Below are positions 7,856 through 64,000 of a DNA stretch of 64,000 bases, one piece after another (the stretch's first letter is position 1; each line of letters opens with the position of its first letter). Below the pieces are notes generated by a model. The model was not told the origin of the DNA, did not search any database, and was given only the letters and a program-made list of their open reading frames with translations. The translations under genes and the position numbers were made by a program. The stretch spans positions 173,557 through 237,556 of the forward strand of contig CALEIS010000135.1 of the NCBI GenBank assembly GCA_937877675.1, written 5' to 3'. This DNA comes from an uncultured Clostridia bacterium (lineage in GTDB: Bacteria > Bacillota > Clostridia > Oscillospirales > Acutalibacteraceae).

Positions 7856-8521
7856 ATGTCTAAGTATACAACAGAAACAGCAACACTTAAAGCACTTGTC
7901 ATCGACACGAATGTTCTTAGGGTAAATGGGTATGAAGTAAATTTCAATGATGCAGGGTTGAGTATTACCCCACCTAAAGTGTAGACTATTCCTGACGAAT
8001 AGCCTGAAAATCCTGGTGAGGGTGGAGATACACCATAGCCTACTCCTACTCCAATTCCACCAATAAATCCTGACATCATAATTGGTGGAGGTGCAACTGA
8101 AATCATTAAAGAAACTGTTATTGAAAAACATAATTCAGTAAAAACAGTAACACTAAATCTTGGTAATATTATTGTTGGTGTTTCTAATAAAAATTATACT
8201 TGTAATATTGACGAAGAAGAGGGTAATATAAGTTTCTCATTCAAAGGAGAAAATGTAGATTCCACAGAAAAATGGATTCCAAGTAAAGTTTTGGTAAACG
8301 GACAAGTTGTTCTAGTTCCAATTCATCGAGGATAGGCTAATGAATGGATTATTTCATTATATTCTCATGGTGATTCATTATCAGATATATATGGAGGTCT
8401 TACAGATGAAAGTATTATAAAGATTTATTTCTATCTTTCTGAATAGGTTGCCATTGAAGAGGATGACTTAGAAGGGGATGAAGAAGAATCACCTGAAAAT
8501 CCTGAAGAACCTACAGAATAA
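7856..8521 (+). CDS. hypothetical protein with five in-frame TAG codons
   Basis: ATG at 7856, TAA at 8519-8521. TAGs include 7982, 8000 and 8036, plus two more near the 3' end. Pro-rich contexts (DE*PENP, TP*PTPTP) read smoothly. The gene is invisible in the standard-code track. Confidence 0.6.
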
Positions 8522-15218: not shown

Positions 15219-16724
15219 ATGAAAATTGTTAGTCCTACAAAAGCTACATAGATTTTACAACAACTCATTGATACAGGTAAAAGTGGAGAAGTGACTATTG
15301 GTCTTAAACCTGATTATAGAGTAGATGCAACAGGTCTTGCTTCTCTTATTTCACTTTTAGGGTTGACAGATAAAACAGACCTTGAAGGTGGTGGTTATCA
15401 TGTTGCTAATCCTTTGATTTATGTAAACATTAGAAAAGTTGATTGGGATGGTGAAGTTGTAAATTGGGATTTCCCTGATATGGGACAAGTCACAGCAACA
15501 GAAGATTTTCGTAATTAGTCAAGTTTAGCAATGACAGTGAATGTAGAAGCAGGTACTACTGTTAATTTGAGAACTAATTTCATAACACCTGATAATGAAA
15601 TCATTTACGTTTCTTGGGGTGATGACGATAGTATTTCAACGTATAATACAGGAACAGAAGAAAACGTAACAGAACTTACTCATGTTTATAATACAGCAGG
15701 AACTTATACAATTTTCGTAAAAGGAAAACTTGTAAAAACAACAGTACCAGGCCCTAGCAAAACAACAGATACTGTAACAACCGCTCTTCATTTTATCAAA
15801 CCTACGGTAATTGTAGATGGTTCTATGGGTATTTTAGGTGTATATGAAAAACTTACTGATGTTATTGGAACTATTATTTTAGAGGGTACAGGAACAGTGA
15901 TTAGTAATTTGTTTGTTCTCAATAAAAATATCACTAATGTAAAAGGACTCAAATTAGTATTCCCAGATACATGTATTGACGGTTTAAATATAACTTCAAT
16001 CAATGCAATGTTTGGTATGGGTTGTCAAGAAAATCCCGAACTAAAAGCCAATTTGATAGATGATGTACAACTTATCAATTATAATAGACATTCTATAACA
16101 AAAATTAATACGGCATTCTTTACTTCTGCTATTACAGAATTTCCTTATAGATGGTTTGGAAAAAATGTACAAACTGCTTCACAAGCTTTCAAAAATTGTG
16201 GAAATCTCCAATTTGTACCATCAGGGTTCTTTGAAAAAATAACTTAGGGATATGAAATGTTTTATTGTAATCCTGATGTTGCATCCCCTCTTACAATTTC
16301 ACATAATTTGAAATTCCCAAATTTGACAAATGGAGCAGGTATGTTTGGCAATAGAACATTGTCATTCAATGACATCAAAACGATTTTTGAATCTCTCCCT
16401 AAAAATCCCAATCCTTTGAAAGGTAGAACAGGTAATACTAGGGTCGATGACGTTTCTCCATCCAGTTATTCGATTACTTTTAGTTTTGACCCTGATGAGC
16501 CAAATATCAAACAGAAACTTGTGAAGTATTTCAATCTCAATACAAAGGCTATGGAAAATTGGCATAAAGACAATGATGTGTATTATGGGCAGGAAATAGA
16601 CATGAAAAAACTTTGGGATGGTGGTTGGTATCCTATGTATTTCACTCACTATGGTGATTCATGGGATTATAATAATTATAAAGGTTGGTTCGTGAATTTC
16701 AGAAATCCATATAATTTCACATAA
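15219..16724 (+). CDS. DUF285/BspA-repeat virion protein read through three TAG codons
   Basis: ATG at 15219. In-frame TAGs at 15249, 15516 and 16245. Track ORFs 15291.., 15531.. and 16257.. all share this frame. The repeat motif continues across the last TAG (..GFFEKIT*GYEMFYCNP..). TAA stop. It could alternatively be two genes split at 15531. Confidence 0.55.
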
Positions 16725-28073: not shown

Positions 28074-28176
28074 GACTTTTTTGATAAAAATTCAAATAAA
28101 AATCCCTCATAGACGAAGAATTATCTATGAGGGATACTGATAGACTGTCGCTGGCACAGGCATCTATTAGATGAAA

Positions 28177-28247
28177 TAGTCTCGCAAGGACTCGAACCTT
28201 GTCAGAGGGAATCAAAATCCCTAGTGCTACCATTACACCACGAGACT
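28177..28247 (-). tRNA. tRNA-Gln(UUG)
   Basis: Acceptor agtctcg/cgagact. D arm gtgt-aatggta-gcac. Anticodon arm aggga-ttttgat-tccct. Confidence 0.8.
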
Positions 28248-28258
28248 ATGTTTAGAAG

Positions 28259-28330
28259 GGCGAAGTAAGGGAATTGAACCCTTCTAATCCGAACCACAAT
28301 CGGAGGTTTTACCACTAAACTAACTTCACC
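28259..28330 (-). tRNA. tRNA-His(GUG)
   Basis: Encoded G-1 opposite C73. Anticodon arm tccga-ttgtggt-tcgga. Confidence 0.8.
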
Positions 28331-28331
28331 A

Positions 28332-28517
28332 TTACTTTGTGGTTTGTTCTACAGGAATTTCAATGATGTCCTCAATTACATATACACCACATTCAGGCAT
28401 ATCTCTCAATTCAGGAGCACCTTGTTCACATATGCTTGTACAACATGATGTCAAAGCACACATAATTCCTACAATTGCCATGAAAATTAATACTACTAAA
28501 ATACCTGTCTTATCCAT
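28332..28517 (-). CDS. small membrane/lipoprotein-like protein
   Basis: 61 aa with a hydrophobic N-terminus ending ..ALTSC. Confidence 0.45.
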   Translation of the reverse strand: MDKTGILVVLIFMAIVGIMCALTSCCTSICEQGAPELRDMPECGVYVIEDIIEIPVEQTTK

Positions 28518-31749: not shown

Positions 31750-31993
31750 AAGTTTGTAACTATCCCTCACCACAGGGAGAACCGTTTCATAAGTTCTTTA
31801 TCCTAGTTACTGAAGATTTAGATTACATCGTACATAGAAGTTTGACGTGGATGTAATCATCCCAATGAGTATGTTCCTTACTTGCCCCCTCATCGGTTAC
31901 TGGGGCGACTGCTCTTTATACATTATCAGGGGAAAGCAGAAAATCCTTTACTGATAAGGGATGAGTTGGTGGTGTCCTACTCATCACAGGAGA

Positions 31994-32065
31994 CAAGGCA
32001 TAGGGGAATTGAACCCCTGTTTAGGGAATGAAAATCCCTTGTCCTAACCACTAGACGAATGCCTC
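31994..32065 (-). tRNA. tRNA-Glu(UUC)
   Basis: gaggcat-tc-gtct-agtggtta-ggac. Anticodon arm aggga-ttttcat-tccct. 4-nt variable loop. Confidence 0.8.
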
Positions 32066-32141: not shown

Positions 32142-32170
32142 ATTATACATCAGTTCTTTTCTTTTGTCAA
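32142..32170 (-). promoter_or_regulatory. TTGACA-N17-TATAAT promoter cassette
   Basis: attata at 32142-47 and tgtcaa at 32165-70. Confidence 0.7.
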
Positions 32171-32209
32171 GCACTTTTTGAAAGTTTTTTGAACTTTTTT
32201 CTTGAAAAA

Positions 32210-32281
32210 CACTCCATGCGGGATTTGAACCCACCTTCACGATTTTAGAGACCGTTGTCCTAACCACTAGACGAATGGAGC
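32210..32281 (-). tRNA. amber suppressor tRNA (anticodon CUA)
   Basis: gctccat-tc-gtct-agtggtta-ggac-a-acggt-CTCTAAA-atcgt-gaag-gtggg-ttcaaat-cccgc-atggagt-g. Canonical 7-nt loop with U33 and CUA at positions 34-36 (plus-strand tag at 32246-48). Confidence 0.8.
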
Positions 32282-32288
32282 ATGAAAG

Positions 32289-32362
32289 TAGCGGGGATAG
32301 GACTCGAACCTATGACTCCACGAATATGAATCGTGTGTTCTAACCAACTGAACTACCCAGCC
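32289..32362 (-). tRNA. tRNA-Met or Ile2 (CAU)
   Basis: Anticodon arm cacga-ttcatat-tcgtg. One U:C mismatch in the acceptor stem. Confidence 0.7.
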
Positions 32363-37076: not shown

Positions 37077-37757
37077 TTATTTTCCAAATTTTTTCTATAA
37101 AATTGGCAACATCATCTTTCTTGCTCTAATTACATCACTCTCAGTAACGTCATCATGTAAGCCAAATCTTTCTCTTACCCACTCTTTATTCTCTTCAATC
37201 CACTGTTCTATAACATTCCAAACTTCTTTACCACTCAATGCAAACTGATTCTCTAAATCTGCTTCTAATTCCCATGCGAGTTCAAGACAGAATTCTTCAA
37301 GAGTTTTTCTATCGTCATAATGAGCACTTATAGCACCACTGAAATCATACTCATCACCACCATCTACTCTACCACTTGAATATGCTTCACCTAATGTAGC
37401 CTTATCTTTCGTTTGAGAAGCAGCAGCGATAACACCCTTAGCAAAATCTTCTTGGTCTTGTGGAGTAGTAGAACCACTCATTTGCTTCTGACGAATTTGG
37501 TCAGCACGGTTGAATAATGCTTGTCTAGTACCATCGTCAATGTCTTGTGGAGCATTGAAGTATACATAATTCATTACATCCTTATCTTCTAATCCATCTA
37601 CATCTTTCTCTTGAAGAGTTGGTGTAGCATTAGCAACAAGGTCTGTATCCTGAGCAATATCTTCCGTAGTTTCTTCCTGTGTATCTACATTACCAGGGAC
37701 AGTGGCAGGTTGCATAATTGCTTCCTCATTTATAAATCTTACTCTAAAGCGTTTCAT
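37077..37757 (-). CDS. acidic head-module protein (unknown role)
   Basis: 220-aa ORF ending at TAG (37095-97). TAA follows 5 codons later. It lies directly downstream of the capsid gene. Confidence 0.6.
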
Positions 37758-37833: not shown

Positions 37834-39981
37834 TTAGGCGTTATGATTCCAAACAGAACCTTCAGCAGGAGTTACTGTTACAGCAGTAGGAGCAGTAACC
37901 TGTACAGCAGGGCTGATTGGGAATGCATAGGAAGGAGCAGTACCAGTGGTTTCTGCATGAGCAGCATAACCGTTAGGATACATCTTATTGTCGTTCTGAA
38001 CACCAGGGTTGGAGAAGTCGTCAATAAGGATTACATGGTAGTAGAGGTGAGAACCGAAGATATTGTCCATTACACCGTAACGAGTCATAAGACCTACGTG
38101 TGGTGAGAAGGAGTTAGTATCGGTTGCAGTCTGAACCATGATAGGAATGTATGGGCAGTAAATGATACCTGCATCATACGTATCAGCACCCTTATAACCA
38201 AGCATACAATAGTTAGGAAGTTTAACTTCCTGCTCAGTTGTGTCGAACATATCGCCATAACCCATACCGTAGTCATCAGTGCTGTAAACGGCAGTTCTCT
38301 CATCAATGTAAACATTGAACTTGTTACCACCAAGAGTACCAGCAGCAGCGGTCTGAGCATTGTTAAGCTCGATGGTGTTGTTTACCTGCATAGGAACATA
38401 GTCCTCAAGCATCTGAAGAAGAGCAGCAACGTCAGGAGTACATACGATGAAGTTAGCAGCACCACGGTGGTTGCGAACACGCATTCTCATAGCCATCTTG
38501 ATAATGAACTGATAGAATGCACGAGCACGCTCACCCATCCAACGAGCGTCAGCGAGCTTACCAGACCATACAGACCATTCATTGTGCTTGAGAGCTGTGA
38601 AGAGCATACGAACAGTCATTTCACGGTCGATTTCAGCCTGAAGCTCATAGCTCATCTGCTGAGTAGCTTCGGTGTCGATGTCAATACCGTTGGTGTTCTT
38701 GAGGTCTTCCTGAGTTTCAAGTGTCCAAGAGGTTGAAAGTCTACGAGTACCAGCTTCAACAGCCTGCTTCTCGAAACCGAAGGAGGTACGAGCGATAGCA
38801 CCAGTAGCTTCAAAAGCATGAACGCGAGCAGCGATACCAGTATCCTCAAGACGGAACTGCCAACGACCACCTGCAAGAGGCTGGAGGAGTTGCTTGTCCT
38901 GAGCACCTGTGAAGCGGGTATCAAGACGCTGATAACCCATTTCAGAGTTACCCAAGTCCCACTTACCAGTTACTTCATTGAACTTGATGTCAGAAATCTG
39001 AACGTCACCCTTAGCAGGGTCAGAGATACCAACAATCTTAGTACCATCTGTAGCATCCTCTACACGCTTTTCAGCAGCAGTCTAAATTTTGTCAAGAAGT
39101 TCTGTCTCGGATGAATCAACACCACGCTGAGCAGCAACAACAACAGCTTCCTTAATCTTGGCTTCTGTGATGGTTGTAAGTGTAGCATAATCAACTTCAC
39201 CAATAATCTGTGTAAGAACAGGGTGAACGATGTACTTCTTATTCTTTTCAGAAGCAGCCTTTGTACTTACGAAAGCAGGGTTTGCAACGATTGCAGGGAA
39301 ACTCTGTGGGAAACCATTACCAACAACAGTTACAAGAGTAGCACTACCTTCGGCTGTTGAAGTAGCGTCAGTAATAGTAAGCTTAGCCTTGGTCTCTACA
39401 CCACGGATACCCTGAGCGGTATACTCAGTAGCAGCAGAACCATTGTATACAGTATCACGCTGAGCATATTCAGTTGTTTCACCAGAAACACGAGGACTGT
39501 GAACGTGCTCTGTGGAGCTGTCACCAAGAGCGTTAGCACCCTTGAGGTAACGATAACGGATAGCGAATGCAAGAGCTACAGGGCCAGGCATAGGCTGAAC
39601 ACCAACCGTTTCATTGCTCATAAGAGCAGGATAGATACGGCGAACCATAGGAAGAATAGTCGTTGGGTTACGCATGTCACCAGGAGCATAGAAGTCACTG
39701 TTGCCAAGCTCACCACCGTGAAGACCATTCTGAGGACCGAACATAGCGGTTGTCATTGCAGGACTGTTCTCATTGAGCCAACGCATCTGGTTCTCAAGAA
39801 GCATAGCGGTGTTGTTACGAACAGCCTTGGAGCGAATAGGAGCGAAACCAGCAGTACACTCAAGAAGCTCAGACCAGTTCTTTACTGCCTTGCGAGTACG
39901 CTGACCATTTTTCTGCGTCTGGGTAAGGCGAGCCTTAGGAGCAGCCTGTGCAGTACGCTTTGTTTTAGTAATAATAGCCAT
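37834..39981 (-). CDS. major capsid protein, T4 gp23-like, with one in-frame TAG
   Basis: Track ORFs 39082..39981 and 37834..38955 share a frame. They are joined through TAG 39082-84 with no other stop (..ELLDKI*TAAEKRVED..). The N-terminal part has gp23-type motifs LLENQ..WL, PMVRRIYPALMSNETVGVQPMPGPVALAFAIRY. Confidence 0.75.
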
Positions 39982-41310: not shown

Positions 41311-41982
41311 TTACATTTTCTTCATGAAATCCATAACAGCACCTAAAAGATACTTCTCTACATCCTTCTTAGGAAGTTTAGCCAACTTCTTATCAAAGCT
41401 CTCATACTGCTCTACGTACTTCTCATTGTAGTTACAAATCCAATCTTTACTTTCAAGAATACCATTTACGAATGCTTTCTGACAAGAAGGGTCATGAACA
41501 ATGTCAAATGTGCAAAGTTGGAAATCTGTTACAATACCTGTGCTCTCATCCAAACATCCAAGTGAACGAGAAGAAACACCTAATTGTACACCGTCTCTCA
41601 AAAGGCTTTCTACAATCTTACCTGTAGGTGTGCTCAAAATCTTGGACTTACCATAGAATACATTACCATCCTGCTTGAGAGAAGTAATAAGGTGACATGC
41701 CTTTTCAGCATTCAAGTTAGGATACTCAGGATGTTCCAATTCACCTGTTGCTCTGTGTTGAAGAACGAACTTCTCATTGAACTCATTAATCTGCTGTACC
41801 ATCTCATCAAGAGGATAGATACGATTATTACGGTTACGACTGTTAGCCTCTGTGAATGGGCCTTCAATATAATATCTCTTTTCTTTTGAACCGTCAGGCA
41901 TTTCTACACTCTCATTGAGGAATGAGAATTCATGTCTGTCTTTAGGTTCTTCTACGATAAGTTTCAAACTTTTAGTAATCAT
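41311..41982 (-). CDS. prohead core protease (T4 gp21-like)
   Basis: NRNNRIYP...ATGELEHPE matches gp21-family signature regions. Synteny with scaffold and capsid genes. Confidence 0.7.
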   Translation of the reverse strand: MITKSLKLIVEEPKDRHEFSFLNESVEMPDGSKEKRYYIEGPFTEANSRNRNNRIYPLDEMVQQINEFNEKFVLQHRATGELEHPEYPNLNAEKACHLITSLKQDGNVFYGKSKILSTPTGKIVESLLRDGVQLGVSSRSLGCLDESTGIVTDFQLCTFDIVHDPSCQKAFVNGILESKDWICNYNEKYVEQYESFDKKLAKLPKKDVEKYLLGAVMDFMKKM

Positions 41983-42775: not shown

Positions 42776-42800
42776 GGTGGCTCATTTGAGCCACCTTTTT
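42776..42800. terminator. bidirectional hairpin between convergent genes
   Basis: ggtggctc-attt-gagccacc, flanked by an A-run and a T-run. Confidence 0.6.
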
Positions 42801-48336: not shown

Positions 48337-49062
48337 TTACATTCTTTTATCGTTATTCTTCAAGTTTCTAAACTCTACCTTGAATGTTGTTTCAATCAAA
48401 TCCTCTGTTCTAAATCTTCTAGGACTTTGATTTACATTTCCTAATGTCTCAGGGCATTCGTTGAAGAATTGGAAATAATGAGTTCCTTTATAACCCCACT
48501 TCTCTAATTCTTTTAGAATTTTATTAGCCTTTTCCTCATTGGTAATCTCAGGGTGAATTGTAGTTCTTGTCTCAAACGGAACATTATTACTAATCATGTA
48601 TTCAAGTAACTGTTCCATATGCCATCTAAGCATACTGTTACCGTGGAACTTCAAGTATTCATTAGGAAGGTCAGGGTATTTGTAGTCCAAGGCTACATAA
48701 TCTATCAATCCGTCCTCAATCATCTCAATAACCAAGTTAGGATTAGAACCATTAGTATCTACCTTTACCTTGAACCCTTGCTCTTTACACCACTTCGCAC
48801 TGTCAATTAGATAGTCTCTGTGGAGGGTACATTCACCACCACTGAATACTACATAATCAATGAGATTCTTACGAGAGAGAAGATAATCCTTTATCTCTTG
48901 TGGGTTTAACTCAGGAAGTTGCCCTTTCCATAATTGAACATTATAACAATAGCCACATCGGAAATTACATCTGCTGCTAAACAGAACACAAGATGTATAA
49001 CCTCTCATGTCAATCATGGAAAGTTTCTCCACACCACATACTTTACTAAACACATTACTCAT
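48337..49062 (-). CDS. nrdG: anaerobic ribonucleotide reductase activating protein (radical SAM)
   Basis: CNFRCGYCYN (CxxxCxxC) near the N-terminus. Size and context fit NrdG. Confidence 0.75.
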   Translation of the reverse strand: MSNVFSKVCGVEKLSMIDMRGYTSCVLFSSRCNFRCGYCYNVQLWKGQLPELNPQEIKDYLLSRKNLIDYVVFSGGECTLHRDYLIDSAKWCKEQGFKVKVDTNGSNPNLVIEMIEDGLIDYVALDYKYPDLPNEYLKFHGNSMLRWHMEQLLEYMISNNVPFETRTTIHPEITNEEKANKILKELEKWGYKGTHYFQFFNECPETLGNVNQSPRRFRTEDLIETTFKVEFRNLKNNDKRM

Positions 49063-50024
49063 ACTTTTCTCTTTATTAGAATTCTTGTATAAAGTGCTTT
49101 TCTATCGAGAACAGGGCCTCTTGTTCTCAAAACTTTGCCACTTTTTTCTTCGTATTCTGCATTTTCACCACAGATAAATCCGTTCACATAATCACTTTGA
49201 GAAAACCTATTGAAAATTCCTACAATTTCAAATAAATCCTCTCTCTGCCTATCAATGTAAGTAACAGGAACTCCCATCAGACCATCATAATCAACAGGGA
49301 TGTCTTTACTGTTTTTCACATGAATAGCATCCAAGTTATCATACTTAGGATAATCTTTTTCATTATAATGACATACAGGTTCAATTCCTTTATTATCTTG
49401 TGAGATGTCAAAGTTAGTATACCACCTTACACCATCCACTCTGATGTATTTTACACCTTTTTCATCTATTCTACTTGCCTTTTCACTTAAAGGATAATCA
49501 TCAGGAACTCTAAACTCCCTGTCACCACTATGTATTGAGACACCAAGTCTCACCTCATTTCTCTTGAAATATGGAAACACTTCCTTTGTCACCACTCCTT
49601 TATTCGTTCCAAGAGTAATGAACTTCTTACCGTGTTCCATAATCAACTTCAAATGTTGTCTGAATAAAGAGAATGGAGGATTAGTAACAACTATATCACA
49701 TTGCTTCAAAAACTCAATACATTCTTCACTTCTGAAATCTCCATTACCTTTCATTACAGTTAGTTGCATTTCATCTTTATTGATGTCCTCTAATGTACCA
49801 TGAGGATAAGAAGTACAGATAAGACGCTTCAACCCTAACTTATCAAAATTATCAAAGAAGTATTTTCTAAAATTAGAATAGTGGTCGTCACAGTTGCAAT
49901 ATACAGTTTTATCCTTGAAGAAATGAGTATAATACTTCATTTCTTTTTCAATATCTTCATACGAAGTATAAAATTCATCTGCCTTTCTTCTTTTGGCATC
50001 ATTTAATGTATTTCTAGTTCCCAT
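49059..50024 (-). CDS. adenine-specific DNA methyltransferase (EcoRI-methylase-like)
   Basis: ADEFYTSYEDIEKE...VYCNCDD...VVTNPPFSLF. Confidence 0.7.
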   Translation of the reverse strand: MGTRNTLNDAKRRKADEFYTSYEDIEKEMKYYTHFFKDKTVYCNCDDHYSNFRKYFFDNFDKLGLKRLICTSYPHGTLEDINKDEMQLTVMKGNGDFRSEECIEFLKQCDIVVTNPPFSLFRQHLKLIMEHGKKFITLGTNKGVVTKEVFPYFKRNEVRLGVSIHSGDREFRVPDDYPLSEKASRIDEKGVKYIRVDGVRWYTNFDISQDNKGIEPVCHYNEKDYPKYDNLDAIHVKNSKDIPVDYDGLMGVPVTYIDRQREDLFEIVGIFNRFSQSDYVNGFICGENAEYEEKSGKVLRTRGPVLDRKALYTRILIKRKV

Positions 50025-54411: not shown

Positions 54412-54588
54412 TCAGCAACCACAAGAGCATTGACAACCCTTGACCTTAAAGAACTCACGCTCAGCGAATTCTGACTTCTTACCAACATTGAATGAATTAA
54501 CATTACGATAGTAACCCATTACACGAGAGAATACCTCACAACGCTGTCTCTCACCCTCATACTTACTTAAAAATTCTTTCTTGCCCAT
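54412..54588 (-). CDS. stand-alone glycyl-radical domain of NrdD (58 aa)
   Basis: MGKKEFLSKYEGERQRCEVFSRVMGYYRNVNSFNVGKKSEFAEREFFKVKGCQCSCGC contains the class III RNR C-terminal RV.GY..(N).N.GK..E motif. It is below the track's cut-off. Confidence 0.6.
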   Translation of the reverse strand: MGKKEFLSKYEGERQRCEVFSRVMGYYRNVNSFNVGKKSEFAEREFFKVKGCQCSCGC

Positions 54589-54686: not shown

Positions 54687-55466
54687 TTATGAAAAATCAA
54701 CAATTTCTAATCTTTTTTTGGCATACTCAGTTTGAGCTTCTGATAGTTCAATGCCTATGTAACTCATACCCAAGTTCTTACATGCCATTCCTGTTGTCCC
54801 TGTTCCACTAAAAGGGTCAAGTACAACCATTCCCTCTTTACCGTATAATGACAATAACTTCTCACACAACTCTGTGGAATATGTGCATTTGTTCAAGTCA
54901 TTAGTTCCATCGTTATTCTTTGCTTCAATGAAGTTGTAATAACACTCATAAAACTTCTGTCCATGATGACTAACACTCTTCACAGCCTTGTTTGTAGTGA
55001 ATGTTTTTATCTCATCCTTTCTACAGAGAACAAACACATGCTCCCAAATTCTTGTCAACTGAGTGGCTGATACATTATTAGGAATAGCACTTCTTTTCTT
55101 CCAACAAATGTCATCTGCCATTGTGAAGCATGTATTCCTAAAGATGTCTGCTAATGTCAAATACATACATTCTGTGTTCATTCCACCATAGTTCATGTTC
55201 CATAAGATTACTCCATTAGGTTTCAATACACGCTCAAACTCTTTGAAGTATTGAAGCATCCACTCAGAGTATTCTTCATTCGTCATTGTATCAAGTCTGA
55301 TGTCATAACGAACAGTAGGATGTCCCTTTGTGTTCTGCTTTCCTAATGTTGCTCCACCTTTTTTATTCGTATTATAAGGAGGAGAGGAAAGAATGATGTC
55401 GATAGAATGGGAGGGGTGGTTTTTCAACCACCCCAATGAATCACAGTTATGAAGTTGAAGATTCAT
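54687..55466 (-). CDS. DNA methyltransferase (beta class, SPPY motif; N4-cytosine or N6-adenine)
   Basis: LSSPPYN...DPFSGTGTTG. It sits between the two parts of nrdD. Confidence 0.8.
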   Translation of the reverse strand: MNLQLHNCDSLGWLKNHPSHSIDIILSSPPYNTNKKGGATLGKQNTKGHPTVRYDIRLDTMTNEEYSEWMLQYFKEFERVLKPNGVILWNMNYGGMNTECMYLTLADIFRNTCFTMADDICWKKRSAIPNNVSATQLTRIWEHVFVLCRKDEIKTFTTNKAVKSVSHHGQKFYECYYNFIEAKNNDGTNDLNKCTYSTELCEKLLSLYGKEGMVVLDPFSGTGTTGMACKNLGMSYIGIELSEAQTEYAKKRLEIVDFS

Positions 55467-57406
55467 TATGCCTTATTGGGGTCAATTTCATCAGCATGTT
55501 TTGCCATCAACTCCTTGTCACACAACGGACAGAACTCATGGATACCAGGGATTCTGCCATGCTTAGGACATGTGGAGAATGTTGCTGTGAAAGAAACATA
55601 AGGAAGTCTATAGTTGGTGAGAACTTTACGAAGAAGAACTTTACATTCCTCTGCTGTTACATCCTCATCATTATAAATGTGGAGAACCGTACCACCTGTA
55701 TATGCCTTCTGTAAGTCATCCTGTAAATCCAATACTGCAAATACATCATCGGAGAAATCTACAGGAAGTTGTGAAGAGTTGGTGTAATAAGGAGCATCAG
55801 GGAAACCTGCCTGAATAATGTCAGGATAACGCTTAATGTCTTCACGAGCAAATCGTGTAGTAGTACCCTCAGCAGGGGTTGCTTCCAAATTCCACAATGC
55901 CTTACCTGTTTCCTGATAACCTACCATTCGCTCATTCATCCACTTGAGAATATCCAATGCCATCTTCTGTCCACGTGGGTCAGTAATGTTATACTCATCA
56001 TTGGTGAAATTACGTACCATCTCATTCATACCATTTACACCAATCGTAGAGAAGAATGTATCCAAGGTACGAACATATCTGCGAGTGTAAGGATAAAGAC
56101 CACGAAGATTCATCTCCTCTACAAATGCACGCTTCTTATCAAGAGTAGAACGTGCCATGTCCATCAACTGTCCAAGACGCTTATAGAGAGCCTTCAAATC
56201 TCCCTTGTAAAGATAACCAAGACGAGCCATGTTAATAGTTACTACACCAATAGAACCTGTCTGTGCATCAGAACCAAAGAGACCACCACCACGCTTTCTA
56301 AGTGCCTTACGGTCAAGCTGCAAGCGACAGCACATACTTCTTACGTCATCAGTAGAGTAAGCACTTTCATCACGGATAGTGAGCTTACCGTTTTCATCAC
56401 GGAGATACTGAGAGCCAATGAAGTTCTGGAAATAGGTAGAACCATAGAGAGCAGCATTCTCAAAGAGGAATTCATACTCAGGATTATCCCATTCAAAGTC
56501 CTCAGTAATGTTTACGGTAGGAATAGGGAATGTGAAAGGCTGTCCTACGCAATCACCCTCAGAAAGAACCTCATAGTACATCTTAGAGATAATCATCATC
56601 TCTTTCTTGAAGTGTTCATAAGTGAGGGAATAGAGAATAGTTTCCTCATCACTTTCAAAGTCATTGAGACGCTTACGTGCTTCTGCGAACAATCTATTCC
56701 AACCCTCATTATTAGTATCAGTTTCGCTCTCACAGAACTCACGATAATTACGAACAAAATAAGGTTCTTCACCACGCTGAGGAGCAAGATACTTCATATG
56801 ATTAGGAACAGTCATGTCAATAGTAACATTGCTGAAAGGAGACTGACCCCATCTGCTAGGAACATTGAGATTATAGACAAATGAAAGTAGAGCTTTCTTT
56901 ACATCACGTTCATCAATACCCTCTACTGTCATATCAAAAAACACATAAGGTGCAAGGAGAGTATCGAATGAGGAGAAAGCCTGAGCACCTGCCCACTCAC
57001 TCTGTAGAATACCTACGAAATTAGCCATCTGACCTAGTGCTTCACGGAAATGCTTGGGTGGCTTAGAAGATACACGGCTTACAACACCATTGAAACCTTC
57101 CTGAAGCAAACGCTGCAAATCATGTCCACAACAATAAGCTCCAAGAATGTCAAGGTCATGAATGTGATAATCGCCATTACGGTGAGCATCGCCTTCCTTC
57201 TTAGTGTAAACCTTATCAAGCCAATAGTTAGCAATAGCTTTACCTGCGAGATTATTCACAAGCCCTGCTGCACTATAACCTGTATTAGCATTAGCATTGA
57301 TACGCCAATCACTCTTGTTAATATACTCTTCAACTGATGCTACGCAATCCATCTTCGTAGCACGAGCAGAGTCCGCTTTAATTACATCTTGTAGTCCTTC
57401 AATCAT
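55466..57406 (-). CDS. nrdD: anaerobic ribonucleoside-triphosphate reductase, large fragment lacking the glycyl-radical tail
   Basis: 646 aa with class III RNR hallmarks. It ends just after the Zn-ribbon cysteines (CPKHG...CPLCD) and has no RV.GY motif. Confidence 0.75.
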   Translation of the reverse strand: MIEGLQDVIKADSARATKMDCVASVEEYINKSDWRINANANTGYSAAGLVNNLAGKAIANYWLDKVYTKKEGDAHRNGDYHIHDLDILGAYCCGHDLQRLLQEGFNGVVSRVSSKPPKHFREALGQMANFVGILQSEWAGAQAFSSFDTLLAPYVFFDMTVEGIDERDVKKALLSFVYNLNVPSRWGQSPFSNVTIDMTVPNHMKYLAPQRGEEPYFVRNYREFCESETDTNNEGWNRLFAEARKRLNDFESDEETILYSLTYEHFKKEMMIISKMYYEVLSEGDCVGQPFTFPIPTVNITEDFEWDNPEYEFLFENAALYGSTYFQNFIGSQYLRDENGKLTIRDESAYSTDDVRSMCCRLQLDRKALRKRGGGLFGSDAQTGSIGVVTINMARLGYLYKGDLKALYKRLGQLMDMARSTLDKKRAFVEEMNLRGLYPYTRRYVRTLDTFFSTIGVNGMNEMVRNFTNDEYNITDPRGQKMALDILKWMNERMVGYQETGKALWNLEATPAEGTTTRFAREDIKRYPDIIQAGFPDAPYYTNSSQLPVDFSDDVFAVLDLQDDLQKAYTGGTVLHIYNDEDVTAEECKVLLRKVLTNYRLPYVSFTATFSTCPKHGRIPGIHEFCPLCDKELMAKHADEIDPNKA

Positions 57407-57533: not shown

Positions 57534-57980
57534 ATGTTTAAGTGTTTTAAATTTATTGATGACATGATGAAGCAGCTCAATGAAGCTGATGAAATGCCTA
57601 TGGATGATGATACTGAAATGGGTGGTGATGATGCTGCTATGGAAGACCCTGCTGCTGAGGGAGATATGGATATAGAAGGCGGTGAAGCCCCTGTTGAAGG
57701 TGCGGAAAGTAACCCTGCTTCAAATCCTGAATAGATTGCAGAAGTAGATAACGGTACGTTTATTTCTGACCTTGGTAATGCAGAAGTAGCAAAAACACTT
57801 CTCAAAGCAGTAACAAAAGCATTGCCAAATGAAATTATACCTCCTCAATTTGAAACTGTCACAACTGATAACGCTAATGCAGTAATTCAATACGCAAAAA
57901 ATCTTCTTCAACTTGATGGTACTGATGAAAGTAATCCATATGAAAATATGACTTACGATGATGCTCTCAAAAATGCTTGA
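57534..57980 (+). CDS. acidic protein read through one TAG
   Basis: ORF 57534..57734 ends at TAG 57732-34. The frame continues for 81 sense codons (IAEVDNGTFISDLGNAEVAKTLLKAV...) to TGA 57978-80. The antisense track ORFs here look spurious. Confidence 0.55.
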
Positions 57981-58023: not shown

Positions 58024-58485
58024 ATGAGAAATCATAGCCCTTTTTATTGTCTAATACCTGGCTCATTTCGTCCTCCTCATCAAGGACATTATGAGATGAT
58101 AAGTCATTACCAATCTCTTGCTAGTGAGGCAGGAGGTAAGGTGATTGTAATGGTGTCTAAACCATCTAAGAAGAATGAGAGATTGACAGGGAGTGGACAG
58201 GTAATTACTCCACAGTTTGCTAAGGAGAAGTTACATGAAATGTTTGGAGATAGTATTGAAGTAAGAATCTCTGAGCAAAGCCCTGTACGTGATTGTTATG
58301 AATTTGGTTCTGAGATTACGGAGGGAACTGTAATGTTTTGCTGTGCGAATAAGGATAAGGATATTGAGAGATTTGATATGATAAAGGATTACTATAAAAA
58401 GAAAAACCCCCACATTAAAGTGGAGGTTAGTCCTTTTGAGATTAAGACACAGATAAGTTCTAGTGAGATTAGAAGTAATATGTAA
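58024..58485 (+). CDS. cytidylyltransferase-superfamily (HxGH) nucleotidyltransferase
   Basis: GSFRPPHQGHYEMI near the N-terminus. 153 aa. Confidence 0.5.
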   Translation: MRNHSPFYCLIPGSFRPPHQGHYEMISHYQSLASEAGGKVIVMVSKPSKKNERLTGSGQVITPQFAKEKLHEMFGDSIEVRISEQSPVRDCYEFGSEITEGTVMFCCANKDKDIERFDMIKDYYKKKNPHIKVEVSPFEIKTQISSSEIRSNM

Positions 58486-61400
58486 TATTATCAGCAGTAT
58501 GTCGCCCTTCTGCACCCTACCATTCGATAAGGTCATATGATTTATTTTTATCAGTGAAAGTAAACCAATACATGATATAATCACCTGCACTAAAAGCCTA
58601 ATTCAACTACAATTGACCTGTACTCATAGGTATTGAACATTTCTTAGCATCCTGTGGTATGTATTTTACTACTTGTGTCTAATTACCTTTTTCATCCTAT
58701 TCAGTTACAATGGTCATTTTTACTAAAATGTAATTGATAGCCAAATTTGTCATATCTTTATAATGAATGTTACATTTTACACTGAAATATTTGTAAGGTG
58801 CTACATTCTTTACTTGGTATGAATAATCCATAGCTTGATTCGACTTCAATTTTACGTCTAATTGTGGAATGATTTGGTCACATGATGTATCATTTACATC
58901 CCAACCACATTTATATATTGAACTTGAAACATTATCAGTATTAGCCGAATGATAATCAATAGTCATCGTATATTTGCCAGGTTTTCTATATGGTATACTG
59001 ACACTAAAGTTTGAACGAATGTTGGATTGATATACTTCTTTACCTTGCTAATCATACAATTTACAAATTGCATCATTAGTATCTAAAATTTCAGATGGTG
59101 ATAAGATACCTTTCACGTCTATTCTCATATAGTCATAAGCACTCTAATAATTGGAGGAAACTTCTATATTTTTTTCTTTTAAGAAAGATTTAACATCTGT
59201 CAATTTTGTTGCAGTCCAAGTATCATCAAGGGTCTAAACACATGGCTAATAACGGAAGATTTTAGCATTTGTGTCAATGTCAGTATAACGACAACCTTTG
59301 AAAAGAATCTTTAGTTCATTATCATCTACTGAATAATAATTGGCATCCTTACCATAACTATAATATACATCATTAGTGTTATTTGGAGAAGTCCATTTAT
59401 ATGCTTTCTTTATATTATAAACACTTGTGTTTATCAATTCATAACCGTTTCTTTGAATATTATCTTTATCGAGATACACTTTAGACGATGAAATGTTTTC
59501 ATTTGTGGTGTCAATATTCAAAAAGTCTTCATATAAAGTAAGAGGTGTTCTAGTGATACAATATCTTCTAGGATATTGTTCTTTTCTTTTATATATTGAA
59601 TCTTTAGAATCGTATCCTACTGCACTAATATCAGAAGATTTCAAATCAATTATTCCATTCTAATCTGCTTCATATGCATAGTTTGTTTCTAATCCAAACT
59701 AACTAATAGGTAAATCAAATGAACCATCAATGTTTGGCGTAAATGATTTAGTTCCACATAAAATTTCCAAACCTCTTTCTGAGTTATCTTCGGAAAGATT
59801 TATTAGCCCTTTCATATATGGATAAAATCTATTACCTATCTTTTTCAAATATGATACAAAATTACTAATGGTAAGTCTAGGTACAGGATAATTGTATGTA
59901 TAATAATTGTTCTAAACTCCATCAATAACTTCTTTATACATTCTAATATCTTGTCTCTGACCAACATACTTATTCATTGGAATTATATGTCCAATCTCAA
60001 CCTTATAAATTCCATTAGGAATGCTTTCACAAGAAATTTTCTAACTAAAGTATCCATCGGTCGTTGGTTTATAATCATCAAAAGGTATCTTTTTATCGAC
60101 AATATAACTTATAACCTTTTCAGGATTTTTAGTAGACATTTGTGAAACACGATATAATACATCACCTCGCTCAGGTTCATTTGTTATCCTCCAAGAAGTT
60201 TCCATCTTTTTATTGTTTATTGAAACCATTGGCTAACTCACATTACCTACACTTGTGTATAATAATGTGACAGAAGGAATTTCTGCAATTTCAGAACCCT
60301 AATACACGTTGCTCTAATACATATCATCAGAACTTTTACATATTTCCTTTACTTCAACACTAAATGTATATTCTCCATTTGGTATTTCCCTAAATGGAAT
60401 TTTAGTCTAATAATATGTTTCTGAAATTTTATCTTCTTTGCCATTCTAATCAGTTATAATAACCTCTTCCGTTTTAGGATTTTCAAAGTTAAGGTCATAT
60501 GTTATCAATAATGGCTATAATTCTCTGAAATCATCAGCATGTTTTATATCAATACCACTGTTTGAATCATCATATTTGCTTGTTGTCAAATGCAATTTTG
60601 CATATTGCAAATGGTTAGGACAAGTGTCTTGTGGCAAGCAATATCTGAATATAATAACTTTGTCATCATTTTTACACTATGTTATTGGTGAAGATTGTGG
60701 CACTTCTAATTTATCAGGTTGAATACTTTCACTTGTCTTTTTATATACATACTGAGATACTCCTGATACACCATTGATACCTGTAACCTACATGTATATT
60801 TTGTAAATACCTGTCTCCAAGTTTTCCTTTATACCATTTACTACATTGTAAATCTTAAAACTTCTTTGATTCTAATTTCTCTAAATGTTTGAAACCTCAA
60901 CATCATCAGGACTACAAACTTTGTAACATTTTGGTATCCAATTACTTTCAATGTTTACATTTTTCTAATCAAATGAACAACTAAAACATGTATATTTTCT
61001 ATTAGGTTCATTCTCCTTTTCTTCAACCTATTCAACAATATCCACATTCAAAGCAATAATAGGTACATCTGACCAATTCCATATTATACTTTCTTCATTT
61101 ACAAACTCATCAGCATAATCCTAAGAAATATAATCGTCACTTATATAGACAATCTAATCCTATCCATAAATCTTTTTCCAATTCTTTACAGCGACTACAA
61201 TCAAACTATCATCTCTTTTATCATTGAGAACAAAACTACTTCTATTCTAATTTGAAACATTTGCACTCTTCAAATTGTACTAAATGCCTAAATCGTAAAA
61301 TGATTTATAAACGAGTTTATAAGGGATATATATTGTGACTCTATCATCGAAAGAACTATAAAAAGTGATTGCAATTTTTGGTAAAACTCTAACATCATCT

Positions 61401-61723
61401 GTCAAATAAACATTGAGTTTATCCACATTAAATGTATGTTTTACAATTTTCCAATTCTACTAATTGAAAATACCTAAAGAAGATGATGCTGAGTACAATT
61501 TTTTGATATACGTATCAGAAGTATTATCACCCCAATCAATTTTTACTTTGATAATTTCGACACCTTTAATCGAAGTATCGTTATTTTGAAAAACAACACC
61601 ATCAAAATCGAGAATGAACTCATCGTTATTGAAAATCTCAATAACACCTTTCATTATATTTTGTGTTTGACCATTTAGATAATCGGTCAATTGGTATTTT
61701 TTGACAATCTGTGCAGCACTCAT
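58469..61723 (-). CDS. large virion/fibre-like protein (1084 codons) with 32 in-frame TAG
   Basis: ATG at 61721-23. Every triplet was checked by hand: 32 cta (TAG) and no tta/tca until TAA 58469-71. The four track ORFs here all share this frame. Confidence 0.7.
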
Positions 61724-61736
61724 ATTTTTCTTTTAC

Positions 61737-62870
61737 TTATTTTACAACAAATCCCTTTGGTTTTTTATATCCAAAAATAGCATATGGTGTATACATACTA
61801 GAATCTGTATAATTGGAGTCCTACCAAAATCTTTGTAATTTACTCTTTGAACTTGATTCATTTGTTACTTTTGTTCTTATACTTGACGCATTCTATTCAG
61901 ACCAAGAATATGTTTTATTTTTATGGAAAGTAATCAAATACACAACGCCTTCCTCATACTAGTAATTATATAACTTAGGGAAGAACCATTCATATTTCTA
62001 ATTATTGCCATAATTACCTGTATTACGAGACACACATAACGGTGTTGAATTTTCAAGATAATAACTAATATCTGTTGGTATTACGTTACCTGCTGTTGTC
62101 TATCCCTCAATCACATTCTGACATTTTCTTATTACACAATATACATCACTAAAAGCCTAATTTGGGTCTTTCTTTATACTCAAATAATTTAACCCATCCA
62201 TTTTAGTATCTGTTGAGTTTGGTACATATGTAAACGCAGATATATTTTTATCTACTCCACTAAAAGTTGAACTAGCCATTGCATCATGTTCTTTCTAACA
62301 TTCCTAATTATATTCTATTGATAAAACATCTAACAACTAACGCAACTAGCATAATTCCTATTCAAAAAGAGAGTTACCACCTCCACCACCGATAATCGAA
62401 CTTATTTTTAGTAACTAAGATTCAACATAATCCTTAGATGCTATTGTATTTGTATTAACAGATATCTTTGGATTTTTATCTGAGTTAGATGTATCTACAA
62501 TTATACCTGTTCCTTGAACAATAGATTGAATACCATCACCTCCAGTATCATCATCACCCGAACCAGAAGCTTCATTAGTTATGGAAGTTGGTACATAAAT
62601 GTTATAATCAAGAGTTTGACCTTTCCATGTACCTGTCTAATGTTTTATTCTGGCAGTTCCTAAATGAATGTTTAGTGTATATGGGTCAATATATAACTGT
62701 GTTTTTATATTATTTGCTATACCTGGTGAGTTTATATATACATAGTTCAAATCATTTGAATTAGAAATCTAATTCTATACAGAATTTATAGAACCGTAAC
62801 TTTTACCTCCAAGATATAAGTCTGAAGGATAAACATCTGAACTTTTTATATTGACATCTTTTTCACTCAT
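61737..62870 (-). CDS. fibre-like protein (377 codons) with 15 in-frame TAG
   Basis: ATG at 62868-70, directly after the TAA of the upstream gene. 15 in-frame TAG, no TAA/TGA, TAA at 61737-39. No track ORF exists in this frame. Confidence 0.7.
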
Positions 62871-62872
62871 AA

Positions 62873-64000
62873 TTATACCTTGGTTATCTTAACAATAATA
62901 TCAGCAGAAAGCGAATGGAATACTTCTATTACGCATCTTTCATTTTCTACAACCGCAACTTCATATTTCACATCATCTTCACTTATTTCAGGATTCATTC
63001 TCTTACCATAACAAATTGACACATCACCATTATAATTTTCATCAAAATTGTTGATAACAATATATGTACTAGAGCCTATTTCAGGATTACTAAACCAGAA
63101 TGTATATTCAGGTGCTCCCTTTGGTACAAATTCAATGAAACCTTTCTGTTGTTCCATATCAATATCAAACTCAGTTTCTTCTGAAAGTGGAGTTGCATCT
63201 ATTGGTGTATTAGTATCAGTATCGTCATTTACAATATCAGGCTAGTAAACAGCATCTCCTGTTATAACTTCACCTTTAGCGTCATATGCTACTGAACACG
63301 ATGAATGAACAACAATATCTAATAATGAATCCTTGGTGTGTAAGAATTGAACGATACCTCTATAATTTGGTGGTACTATTAGTACAGGTTGGCAATAATT
63401 TCCATCTTCTGTGTACCATCCATAATACAATACGAAGTCTTGAGACGCTCTTGCAAATCTACGCCCCTAATTAGTAAACTACTTACCATTTTCATAAACA
63501 TATGGAAGACCTGTATTATCAACAACCACGTTAGTTATTGTGCCAGGTACAGGATTTTCAAAATAAATGTATTCTTCTGTATATCCACCACCTGAGTTGA
63601 TTTCAAGAAATCCTTGTTTATTTTTCAAATCAATAATTGTAGTTTCAGCGTTATTTACAGTATCAACAACTCGGTCTTTACCAACTATTAACTAACCTGA
63701 TTCATCAAAACATGCAGCTAATGCATAAGGTGCTATTTCATTTACAACAACTTCTTCAAATCCATCAGGAGGATTGACTGGAACATCAGGTGTTCCACCT
63801 CCACCCTGTCCCCACTAAGGGTCTTGTTTAATGGCAACAATAATGTCATCTCGAATGAGTTCATAGTTCATTCGTATGTTCATTGTTTTTTCAACACCAT
63901 TTTCGTCCTTATATTTCTTATATCCAACAAATACCATTTCGTCAGGTTTTGTGTTTCTTTCAAATTCAGAAAACTTTTTACGTGATATTGCTATTGGAAC
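62873..64000 (-). CDS. virion protein, 5' end outside window, with at least 5 in-frame TAG
   Basis: The frame is open from 64000 to TAA 62873-75, apart from TAGs at 63242, 63467, 63479, 63692 and 63815. Confidence 0.65.

Follow-up and report, generated by a model that had tools for sequence, protein, structure and literature searches.

In-frame TAG codons of a T4-like jumbo phage behave evolutionarily as glutamate and accompany a tRNA-Glu-like amber suppressor

Introduction

A stretch of 64,000 nucleotides (nt) from contig CALEIS010000135.1 (NCBI GenBank assembly GCA_937877675.1, filed under an uncultured Clostridia bacterium; positions 173,557 to 237,556 of the forward strand), which we call the window, ends in three adjacent minus-strand genes, gC, gB and gA, that carry 52 in-frame TAG codons. 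The locus raises two questions, namely whether TAG is a sense codon here and, if it is, which amino acid it specifies. A first-pass annotation, made from the letters alone, concluded that the three genes can be read only with TAG as a sense codon, and favoured glutamine (Gln, Q), as in genetic code 15. Here, we show that TAG behaves evolutionarily as glutamate (Glu, E) in alignments of related genomes, and that the window encodes an amber suppressor tRNA paralogous to its own tRNA-Glu. Reading of TAG as Glu by this tRNA is the best explanation that we can offer, and we consider it likely.

Results

Three adjacent genes are open only with TAG as a sense codon

The genes in question are the following, in order of coordinates.

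58469..61723, minus strand: gA, 1084 codons followed by TAA, with 32 in-frame TAG by codon count
61737..62870, minus strand: gB, 377 codons followed by TAA, with 15 in-frame TAG (4.0% of codons) by codon count
62873..64000, minus strand: gC, 375 codons followed by TAA, with 5 in-frame TAG by codon count, its 5' end lying off the window

Reading the minus strand triplet by triplet reproduced all codon and TAG counts and coordinates of the first-pass annotation, as well as the complete absence of in-frame TAA and TGA, which extends across 1836 codons of gA, gB and gC. Neighbouring genes are separated by spacers of 2 nt (TAA TT ATG) and 13 nt, and gC, the first gene of the operon, is 385 amino acids (aa) long at full length in the nearest relative, L010, which has 97% DNA identity (L numbers designate the related loci and contigs discussed here). 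At the local base composition, the probability of meeting no TAA or TGA is 10^-33.7 for gA, 10^-11.5 for gB and 10^-10.2 for gC, and the combined probability over the three genes is below 1e-55. TAG itself is present at or above random expectation, with 32 observed against 23 expected in gA.

Under the standard code, the minus-strand open reading frames (ORFs) of at least 60 aa amount to exactly six short pieces, all in the frames of gA and gC and none in that of gB, just as the first-pass annotation had described. Treating TAG as sense raises the share of the last 8 kb that is covered by ORFs of 150 aa or more from 0.48/0.00 to 0.98/1.00. Recoding of TGA or of TAA in the window was rejected, as the same test gave a gain well below that of TAG, reaching 0.62/0.15 with only TGA as sense and 0.52/0.30 with only TAA. 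TAG makes up 2.9% of codons inside gA-gC compared with 0.23% in the rest of the window, and the three genes, at 29-34% GC, are AT-richer than most of the window (about 33-46% in 2-kb bins), a property found in all relatives.

Homologues in related phage genomes of 250-370 kb retain these features. A large protein collection yielded 14 full-length homologues of gA, and all loci that we fetched have the same gene order: Dam methylase, gC, gB, gA, two small opposite-strand genes and NrdD. The homologous genes in these loci contain 7-79 TAG in gA, 2-29 in gB (syntenic in L010, L012, L014, L015 and L017) and from 0 (L014) to 32 (L012) in gC, and never an in-frame TAA or TGA. Fifty of the 52 TAGs are kept in L010, and 75 of the 128 codons that differ between it and the window over gA-gC do so synonymously; since these differences are mostly synonymous, the sequences indicate that gA-gC are under purifying selection. 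Full-length ORFs are conserved across homologues that are about 26-38% identical. The gA protein is hypervariable, its next homologue after the 97% one being 38% identical, though the capsid proteins of the relatives are 71-95% identical.

Because the ORF statistics and the homologues agree, the latter, six or more of them divergent, keeping in-frame TAG and never TAA or TGA, we regard it as practically certain that TAG is a sense codon in the phage from which the window derives. The claim that the genes are readable only in this way is borne out further by a tRNA with anticodon CUA, tRNA(CUA), in the same window (see below). Among 74 gene models called with TAG as sense, 51 end in TAA, 23 in TGA and none in TAG. 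The window thus shows the combination that marks a stop-codon-recoded phage in the sense of Borges et al., with one specific in-frame stop, coding density restored when that stop is read as sense, a suppressor tRNA of matching anticodon, and no use of the codon as a terminator.

TAG has the composition and substitution profile of glutamate

We judged the choice between Glu and Gln from the DNA, as database translations carry TAG as Q. A database Q is no evidence for Gln, since the public collection translated these genes with TAG=Gln. The amino acid composition of the rest of the window is 7.2% E and 2.7% Q. Canonical codons in gA-gC give 5.4% E, which is clearly depleted, and 2.15% Q, which is barely depleted, next to 2.9% TAG. 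Adding TAG to Glu gives 8.3%, near normal, and adding it to Gln gives 5.0%, about twice the norm. The canonical Gln codons of gB, whose scarcity had suggested TAG=Gln in the first place, were counted correctly (CAA 4, CAG 2); if TAG is Glu, half of the Glu codons of gB would be TAG, and 13-50% across the gC-gB-gA unit. Among homologues of gC, the sum of E and TAG is nearly constant (37, 44, 37, 38) and the sum of Q and TAG is variable (13, 38, 9, 26).

Symmetric log-odds scores (S) were computed from gA, gB and gC alignments of five genomes, with bootstrap standard deviations of 0.12-0.32. S(TAG,E) is 1.70, about equal to S(E,E) at 1.62 and S(TAG,TAG) at 1.77; S(TAG,Q) is 1.00, about equal to S(E,Q) at 0.94 and far under S(Q,Q) at 2.81. 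The log-odds towards D are +0.54 for TAG, +0.74 for E and -0.51 for Q, and towards K they are -0.13, -0.04 and +0.87, respectively. For the window's 52 sites alone, Glu is the best of 20 amino acids, with a log-likelihood ratio of E over Q, LLR(E/Q), of 42.2 nats; this ratio ranged over 17.9-65.7 in a site bootstrap and never fell below 0, with 39 sites favouring E and 12 favouring Q. Held-out controls for this test were called correctly at 100% of true-E sites and 98% of true-Q sites. The TAG profiles of L012, L014 and L015 are as Glu-like as those of the window, an independent 14-sequence alignment gave the same profiles, and a simpler likelihood test also ranked Glu best, with 45 of 48 correct calls in its codon-masking control.

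Conserved proteins of relatives show the same behaviour at single sites. TAG (written # in the motifs) falls in NrdD on a Glu kept by all other orthologues, 'YTKK#GDAHRN', and on a second conserved Glu that is present in Thermotoga NrdD too, 'MMV#GIDERD'. Further conserved Glu residues are replaced by TAG in 'GKKS#FAEREF' and 'HKKSPM#ALYCKL', in the scaffold protein ('TLK#NYE'), in the prohead protease ('CLD#STG') and in 'KFG#SVK'. TAG thus occurs on conserved Glu with a profile like that of GAA and GAG, the residues opposite it, whose tabulation the first-pass annotation had suggested, are not mainly Gln, and the suppressor described below is not of the glutamine type. While the conclusion that TAG is sense stands, the Gln assignment made alongside it is at odds with composition, alignments, conserved Glu sites and the Glu-like tRNA(CUA).

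The amber suppressor is a paralogue of the phage tRNA-Glu

ARAGORN and Rfam identify a minus-strand array of 29-30 tRNA genes, lying wholly inside the window, and a single tRNA(CUA) in the entire 64 kb. The elements relevant to its identity are listed here.

32210..32281, minus strand: amber suppressor tRNA, anticodon CUA in the loop CUCUAAA (ARAGORN; Rfam tRNA model 55.6 bits; cloverleaf fold)
31993..32065, minus strand: tRNA-Glu(UUC), paralogue of the suppressor, 143 nt downstream of it
32288..32362, minus strand: tRNA-Met(CAU), 5 nt upstream of the suppressor
32142..32170, minus strand: sigma-70-type promoter of perfect consensus, TTGACA-17-TATAAT, between suppressor and tRNA-Glu
28176..28248, minus strand: tRNA-Gln(UUG), used for comparison, with a D-arm that differs from that of the suppressor

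The suppressor is 69% identical to the phage tRNA-Glu, including all 20 of 20 D-arm positions, and 51-52% identical to tRNA-Gln, with 14 of 21 in the D-arm. G1.U72, U11:A24, U13.G22 and a 4-nt variable region are common to tRNA-Glu and all Glu-type suppressors. In orthologous suppressors, 12 of 21 pairs hold their pairing through compensatory changes. Together, these comparisons show a gene conserved as a tRNA and paralogous to tRNA-Glu, and tRNA-Glu(UUC) is presumably its parent. The sigma-70-type promoter is kept in L018, a relative without the suppressor, and the layout suggests that the suppressor is part of a Pro-Met-Sup unit lying upstream, and that tRNA-Glu is part of the following unit.

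Identity elements point in the same direction. The determinants of Escherichia coli glutamyl-tRNA synthetase (GluRS) comprise U11:A24, U13:G22-A46, delta-47, U35 and A37 (PMC9283866), and the augmented D-stem of tRNA-Glu is a GluRS determinant (PMC2777447). The core of the suppressor matches the E. coli GluRS determinants, rules that may not be those of the host. All of U1:A72, G2:C71, G3:C70, G36 and U38, the determinants of E. coli glutaminyl-tRNA synthetase (GlnRS), are missing from it; U1:A72 is also needed by the bacterial amidotransferase (PMC2777447, PMC9283866).

The array has several further features. An Rfam tRNA at 20804-20878 (minus strand, 47.9 bits) was missed by ARAGORN, and the ARAGORN calls at 35335-35405 and 35679-35760 (minus strand; a second His and a second Leu-UAA) lie below the Rfam tRNA threshold. 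The unusual anticodons ACA (Cys) and AUA (Tyr) that ARAGORN gives in relatives (L018:3518-3592, L019:3173-3247, L019:3676-3751) may be real or mis-calls. A DUF2828/DUF7788 protein (vWA, Ro60-related-like) is encoded at 29808-31340, embedded in the array. Its chromosomal homologue in the Akkermansia metagenome-assembled genome (MAG) L020 (JAFYWX010000020.1) is 56% identical and is found some 5.5 kb downstream of a Cas12b (C2c1)/Cas4-Cas1/Cas2 locus. An IS605 OrfB/TnpB-like (Cas12f-like TNB) gene is found within the tRNA region of a relative (L019:21109-21545).

Sister genomes carry different suppressors, which the meaning of TAG probably follows

Around both tRNA sites considered here, the window is visibly near-identical to the phage L042, whose major capsid protein (MCP) is 80% identical, and the two have identical tRNA-His and tRNA-Gln. 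L042 is without the Glu-type suppressor and has a tRNA(CUA) with a Gln-like D-arm, matching tRNA-Gln at 18 of 21 positions. This gene (L042:21033-21106) is a clean 83-nt insertion next to tRNA-His/tRNA-Gln, and the window has the corresponding empty site.

28330..28335, strand not assigned: empty site, precisely without the 83-nt insertion of L042, between the stop codon of a small ORF and tRNA-His

Conversely, about 90 nt are cleanly deleted from the Met/Glu site of L018 (L018:6801-6937 compared with window 32209-32300). The Glu-type suppressor is found at the window's position in L041, which belongs to the same 247.7 kb genome as L014, and an orthologue occupies the same site in L033; Met-Sup adjacency is common to the window, L033 and L041, and recurs in the unrelated AT-rich lineage of L023. 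The suppressor genes appear as clean presence/absence cassettes of 80-90 nt at two sites of an otherwise near-identical array. The tRNA array of the 363 kb genome (L012/L040) does not adjoin its capsid gene.

TAG stands opposite Gln at 6 of 8 sites in L042, 9 of 9 in the yak contig L043 and 16 of 21 in L044; it stands opposite Glu in L040/L012, L015, L014 and the window. A site-level contrast, hand-tallied from alignments, gave 9:2 versus 0:9 (Fisher p=3e-4). Our approach is not biased towards Glu, since these Gln-type relatives return Gln. The Gln side rests on about ten sites and includes one genome with a known suppressor, L042; in L044, the Met/Glu site has no Glu-type suppressor and the His/Gln site is not covered, and no suppressor was seen in L043. 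These patterns make it probable that sister genomes read TAG differently, depending on the suppressor cassette that they carry.

We lean towards a broader scenario in which, within one jumbo-phage family of the ruminant or animal gut, amber was captured both by tRNA-Gln-like suppressors and by duplicates of tRNA-Glu, such that TAG would stand for Gln in part of the family and for Glu in closely related genomes. Acquiring or losing a tRNA gene of 80-90 nt would switch the code, and following the change to Glu, TAG would have expanded massively, reaching up to 7-11% of the codons of a hypervariable late operon.

A second lineage carries Glu-type tRNA(CUA) genes

We scanned IMG/VR, 185,579 species genomes and metagenomes for the pattern of a Glu-type D-arm with a CUA loop. 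There were no matches in IMG/VR or in the 185,579 species genomes. The 19 matches in metagenomes include some that look eukaryotic, with tRNA-Gln of the same D-arm; on account of these tRNAs, we dropped the D-arm as a stand-alone criterion of Glu identity. The scan recovered the window's own tRNA block (L033) and found the very AT-rich phage contigs L023, L028 and L038 (22-25% GC; L023 22%). L023 (219-3575, Ga0265294_10030867) has a Glu-type suppressor in the Met-Sup arrangement, and L038 (Ga0265293_10003686) has two copies of a Glu-type tRNA(CUA).

Genes of this lineage contain 6-9% TAG, including replication genes (FEN, RecA/UvsX-like). At the FEN motif 'G(Y/F)EADD' of L023, TAG takes the place of the catalytic Glu; by comparison with E. 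coli RecA, it also takes that of the Glu of the P-loop 'GPESSGKT' and of both Glu of 'KAEIEGE'. These sequences support the notion that Glu-type tRNA(CUA) genes go with TAG=Glu, and the AT-rich contigs may represent a second lineage with this assignment that uses TAG in DNA-metabolism genes too.

A further contig, L037, combines an ochre suppressor, tRNA(UUA), with a Glu-type tRNA(CUA) (1090-1162 and 2842-2914), and its ORF coverage rises from 0.42 to 0.93 only with TAA as sense. With the same change, coverage in L022 and L024 goes from 0.65 to 0.97; the three may be TAA-recoded elements.

The gC-gB-gA proteins are probably virion-surface or fibre-like

Neither gA nor gB nor gC had a match in Pfam, PHROG or Protein Data Bank (PDB) sequence searches, and the same searches detected no relatives of gB and gC outside the phage clade. 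We obtained an AlphaFold model of gA from its 97%-identical homologue P0001 with TAG as Q, using 14 aligned sequences (mean predicted local distance difference test score, pLDDT, of 75). The model is an all-beta chain of about ten FN3/Ig-like sandwiches, and Foldseek returned only generic matches to multi-FN3/Ig proteins, among them structural, tail and FN3 proteins of phages. This suggests that gA is probably a virion-surface or tail adhesin-like structural protein. The gB sequence has Gly-rich linkers and a short acidic helical stretch. Taken together, the three products are probably virion-surface or fibre-like.

Upstream of gC, relatives have a terminator hairpin followed by an ATAAATA box about 13-20 nt before the ATG; the box in front of gC resembles the T4 late promoter TATAAATA. 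At the other end, a hairpin likely marks the end of the gC-gB-gA transcription unit, judging by its sequence and position.

58405..58428, minus strand: intrinsic-terminator-like hairpin with a T-run, 41 nt past the gA stop codon

Phage context and use of TAG across the window

The gene content identifies the source of the window as a T4-like jumbo phage with a Gp23-type capsid, belonging to an animal-gut clade with genomes of 245-375 kb. The features that place it, and those in which TAG use is informative, are listed below.

37834..39981, minus strand: major capsid protein, T4-type Gp23 family (phrog_138, 4e-71), with a single TAG in a variable insertion
41311..41982: prohead protease, Peptidase_S77, next to the capsid and scaffold genes
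57534..57980, plus strand: gene for a small, very acidic protein, with 1 TAG and an ATAAATA box at -16
7856..8521, plus strand: late-type gene of 221 codons, with 5 in-frame TAG and an ATAAATA box at -17
15219..16724, plus strand: PKD-like gene of 501 codons, with 3 in-frame TAG and an ATAAATA box at -19

The capsid protein is 29-34% identical to those of cyanophages and other T4-like phages, and PF07068 is found on all its homologues. Megablast of 24 kb against 50,697 phage records (INPHARED) gave no match, and IMG/VR held no MCP relative above 34% identity. The large protein collection contains over 120 MCP clusters that are 71-95% identical, and many of these lie on contigs of 245-256 kb and 355-371 kb. 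One relative, L043 (JAGBVI010000001.1, 375,692 bp), is labelled 'MAG: Paludibacteraceae bacterium RGIG9480, Yak_Cecum' in GTDB/GenBank. Its capsid protein is 74% identical to P0135, a relative that is in turn 95% identical to the window capsid, and the contig is evidently a jumbo phage genome binned as bacterial. As a hint to host and habitat (ruminant gut, Bacteroidales), this label is weak.

Most gene models of the window hold no TAG; the capsid gene has one, and the protease, scaffold and endolysin genes have none. ATAAATA boxes precede ten window genes of at least 100 aa, six of which contain TAG. In 37077..37757, a conserved C-terminus follows the TAG that lies near the end of the gene. 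The L012 homologue of the acidic protein at 57534..57980 has 17 TAG in 153 codons, mostly opposite E or D.

Other window genes encode NrdD/NrdG, an endolysin, many DNA methyltransferases and a Mom-like protein. DNA-modification genes are unusually dense (9484-11720, 12059-12652, 42782-44185, 49059-50024, 54687-55466) and include three tandem N6/N4-type methyltransferase paralogues, the Mom-like gene, and Eco57I-like and EcoRI-like methylases; Dam lies just past the window end, as seen in L010. The NrdD gene is apparently split into a main gene at 55466-57406 (minus strand) and a small ORF of about 58 aa at 54412-54588 (minus strand), about 0.9 kb downstream of it with a methyltransferase gene between them. 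In relatives, this small ORF has a Pfam NRDD match ('GKKSEFAEREF'). The NrdD of the 363 kb relative (L012:14587-17514) has an insertion of about 330 aa directly after the conserved 'PSRWGQ'; it starts with Cys, ends in '...FLTGN' immediately before S and is intein-like in appearance, with none present in the window NrdD.

Discussion

How TAG could come to be read as glutamate

The explanation that we favour is that TAG is read as Glu by a suppressor derived from tRNA-Glu. A phage tRNA-Glu gene would have been duplicated, and two anticodon changes, UUC to CUA, would have given a suppressor that keeps the tRNA-Glu core seen by GluRS. Host or phage GluRS would charge it with glutamate, making TAG a third Glu codon. 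Genes without late-type boxes, being almost free of TAG, would be translatable under the host's standard code, and a subset of genes behind T4-late-type ATAAATA boxes would use TAG, presumably late in infection, with gC-gB-gA as the extreme case. These three would be made only once the suppressor is abundant and release factor 1 (RF1) is out-competed or disabled at UAG. At 95% suppression per site, less than 20% of gA, with its 32 amber codons, would be full-length, and 2% in L012 with 79; because many amber codons per gene cut the full-length yield, RF1 action at UAG would have to be nearly abolished.

Several points weigh against this explanation. The Glu assignment is drawn from substitution patterns and tRNA resemblance, and the identity rules applied are those of E. 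coli; the host and its set of GluRS, GlnRS and GatCAB may differ. The suppressor anticodon is without U34 and C36, both important to E. coli GluRS, and CUA anticodons attract GlnRS, which is known to mischarge amber suppressors (Borges et al. preprint). The D-arm GTCTAGTGGTTAGGAC also occurs in a eukaryote-looking tRNA-Gln of metagenome L039, and the D-arm alone is thus no proof of Glu identity. At the level of single sites, 12 of the 52 window TAGs lean to Q, the TAG of 57534..57980 stands opposite Q, Q and K, and one protease TAG of L040 stands opposite Q; the one TAG/GAG and one TAG/CAA change between the window and L010 are uninformative. The codon-masking control of the simpler likelihood test called CAA as Glu, a bias against rare amino acids, and because of this mis-call we do not rely on that test; the Glu call rests on the symmetric log-odds, the held-out E and Q site controls and the Gln-type relative genomes. 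Finally, the tRNA(CUA) count spans 64 kb of a roughly 250 kb genome, further tRNAs may lie elsewhere, and Pfam and PHROGs revealed no release factor 2 (RF2), GluRS or RF1 antagonist among the proteins of these 64 kb.

Weighing other readings of TAG

We consider it unlikely that TAG is Gln, as in classical code 15, with the suppressor charged by GlnRS via its CUA anticodon, or glutamylated and then transamidated by GatCAB. This is the assignment for recoded phages in the literature covered here, with proteomic validation in crAss-like phages; the mischarging of amber suppressors by GlnRS would work in its favour, and the close relatives L042, L043 and L044 have TAG opposite Gln, as do a few window sites. 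However, the TAG profile is that of Glu, unlike that of Gln, in four genomes including the window, the composition disagrees, conserved Glu positions of NrdD, protease and scaffold carry TAG, the suppressor has none of the E. coli GlnRS acceptor-stem determinants U1:A72, G2:C71 and G3:C70, and the window has an empty site where the Gln-like suppressor would be. Suppressors of both types circulate in the phage family, about a quarter of the window TAG sites lean to Q, and some TAGs are common to Gln-type and Glu-type genomes (for example 'NTNITQ#KDTITM' and 'PIL#KKFGK'). These observations could also fit ambiguous or host-dependent decoding, in which the Glu-type suppressor accepts some Gln as well as Glu, or the genome encodes a second suppressor elsewhere, the mixture being tolerated in fast-evolving surface proteins. 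Amber suppressors derived from E. coli tRNA-Glu have been reported to insert some Gln besides Glu. Such decoding seems quite unlikely to us, given that there is no excess of Q over what Glu itself shows (S(TAG,Q)=1.00 versus S(E,Q)=0.94), that TAG falls on strongly conserved enzyme Glu in relatives and on a catalytic Glu in L023, and that an array lying entirely within the window holds a single tRNA(CUA).

Very improbable, in our view, is that TAG stands for some other or non-canonical residue, or that the ORFs are decaying pseudogenes or yield truncated products. ARAGORN labels the suppressor tRNA-Pyl, which is its label for any CUA tRNA, but the gene has an ordinary cloverleaf, a full-length match to the general tRNA model and the body of a tRNA-Glu paralogue; no pyl genes are present among the annotated window proteins, and Glu is ahead of the 19 other amino acids by at least 42 nats. 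Although gA-gC are without a recognisable family, the pseudogene reading is ruled out by zero TAA and TGA in 1836 codons, the conserved full-length ORFs and the excess of synonymous changes.

Comparison with known recoding systems

Phages described under code 15 (crAss-like phages, Lak megaphages, Garnet and Amethyst; Ivanova 2014, Devoto 2019, Yutin 2021, Borges 2021/22, Peters 2022) share with the window in-frame TAG and a phage tRNA(CUA), low GC and a large tRNA set. Their TAGs are concentrated in a late or structural subset, with early genes compatible with the standard code, and the window may resemble them in this too. It differs from them in that its TAG behaves like a Glu codon and its suppressor is paralogous to tRNA-Glu, and in that the phage is a T4-like jumbo phage of myovirus type (Gp23) with no RF2 seen in the window. 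The suppressor isotypes predicted so far were reported as Gln, Trp, Ile and Tyr, not Glu (PMC10879173); Peters et al. report validation of Gln at TAG in crAss-like phages, and Cook et al. and a 2026 jumbo-phage survey applied code 15. Some TAGs of Lak phages opposite E were read as Gln (Crisci et al. 2021, PMC8346664), and Al-Shayeb et al. 2020 (PMC7162821) left 'TAG to X' open and noted that huge phages encode GluRS genes. These reports on Lak megaphages and huge phages concern a different phage family and propose no Glu-type suppressor or Glu assignment. Full-text literature searches for a glutamate meaning of TAG in phages turned up no such code, and in the published recoded phages covered, TAG is assigned to Gln or left open.

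Outside phages, E. coli tRNA-Glu has been engineered into amber suppressors (Normanly et al. 1990; Gregory & Dahlberg 1995, both as cited in PMC9283866). The design is the same, with a tRNA-Glu body, a CUA anticodon and GluRS determinants in the core and D-arm, but the phage suppressor is natural, conserved with compensatory changes, and has G1.U72 and C2:G71 in place of G1:C72 and U2:A71. Phages that read TGA as Trp (code 4; Jade, Agate, Sapphire, Topaz) follow the same logic of gating late genes by a phage suppressor tRNA. They differ in codon and amino acid, TGA being an ordinary terminator in the window (23 of 74 genes).

The nuclear code of peritrich ciliates (NCBI table 30) assigns TAA and TAG to Glu through tRNA-Glu-like suppressor tRNAs, and it is, to our knowledge, the only TAG-to-Glu code known. 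It is eukaryotic, genome-wide and comprises both codons, whereas the window uses only TAG, in part of the genes of a bacterial virus whose host presumably has the standard code.

Implications

Gene callers and annotation tools such as Prodigal-gv and Pharokka-gv ('code 15') turn every recoded TAG into Gln, and the public collection holds the 97% homologue of gA, P0001, with Q at all TAG sites. If TAG is Glu, about 3-8% of residues would be wrong in some proteins of the clade, including a catalytic Glu in the other lineage. It would also be the first TAG-to-Glu code outside ciliates and, if close relatives read TAG as Gln, a live sense-to-sense reinterpretation between sister lineages. Two meanings of TAG in sister genomes, set by small tRNA cassettes, would mean that a freed stop codon is easily re-captured, and the chemical likeness of Gln and Glu would lower the barrier to such a codon switch.

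The demands on translation are considerable. With 32 ambers in one gene, and 79 in a relative, suppression must be near complete, which predicts new means of neutralising RF1. It further predicts an unusually good natural Glu amber suppressor, accepted by GluRS despite its CUA anticodon, which would be of interest for genetic-code engineering. For the phage itself, the extreme TAG load in one hypervariable late operon suggests tight translational gating, or protection, of host-recognition proteins.

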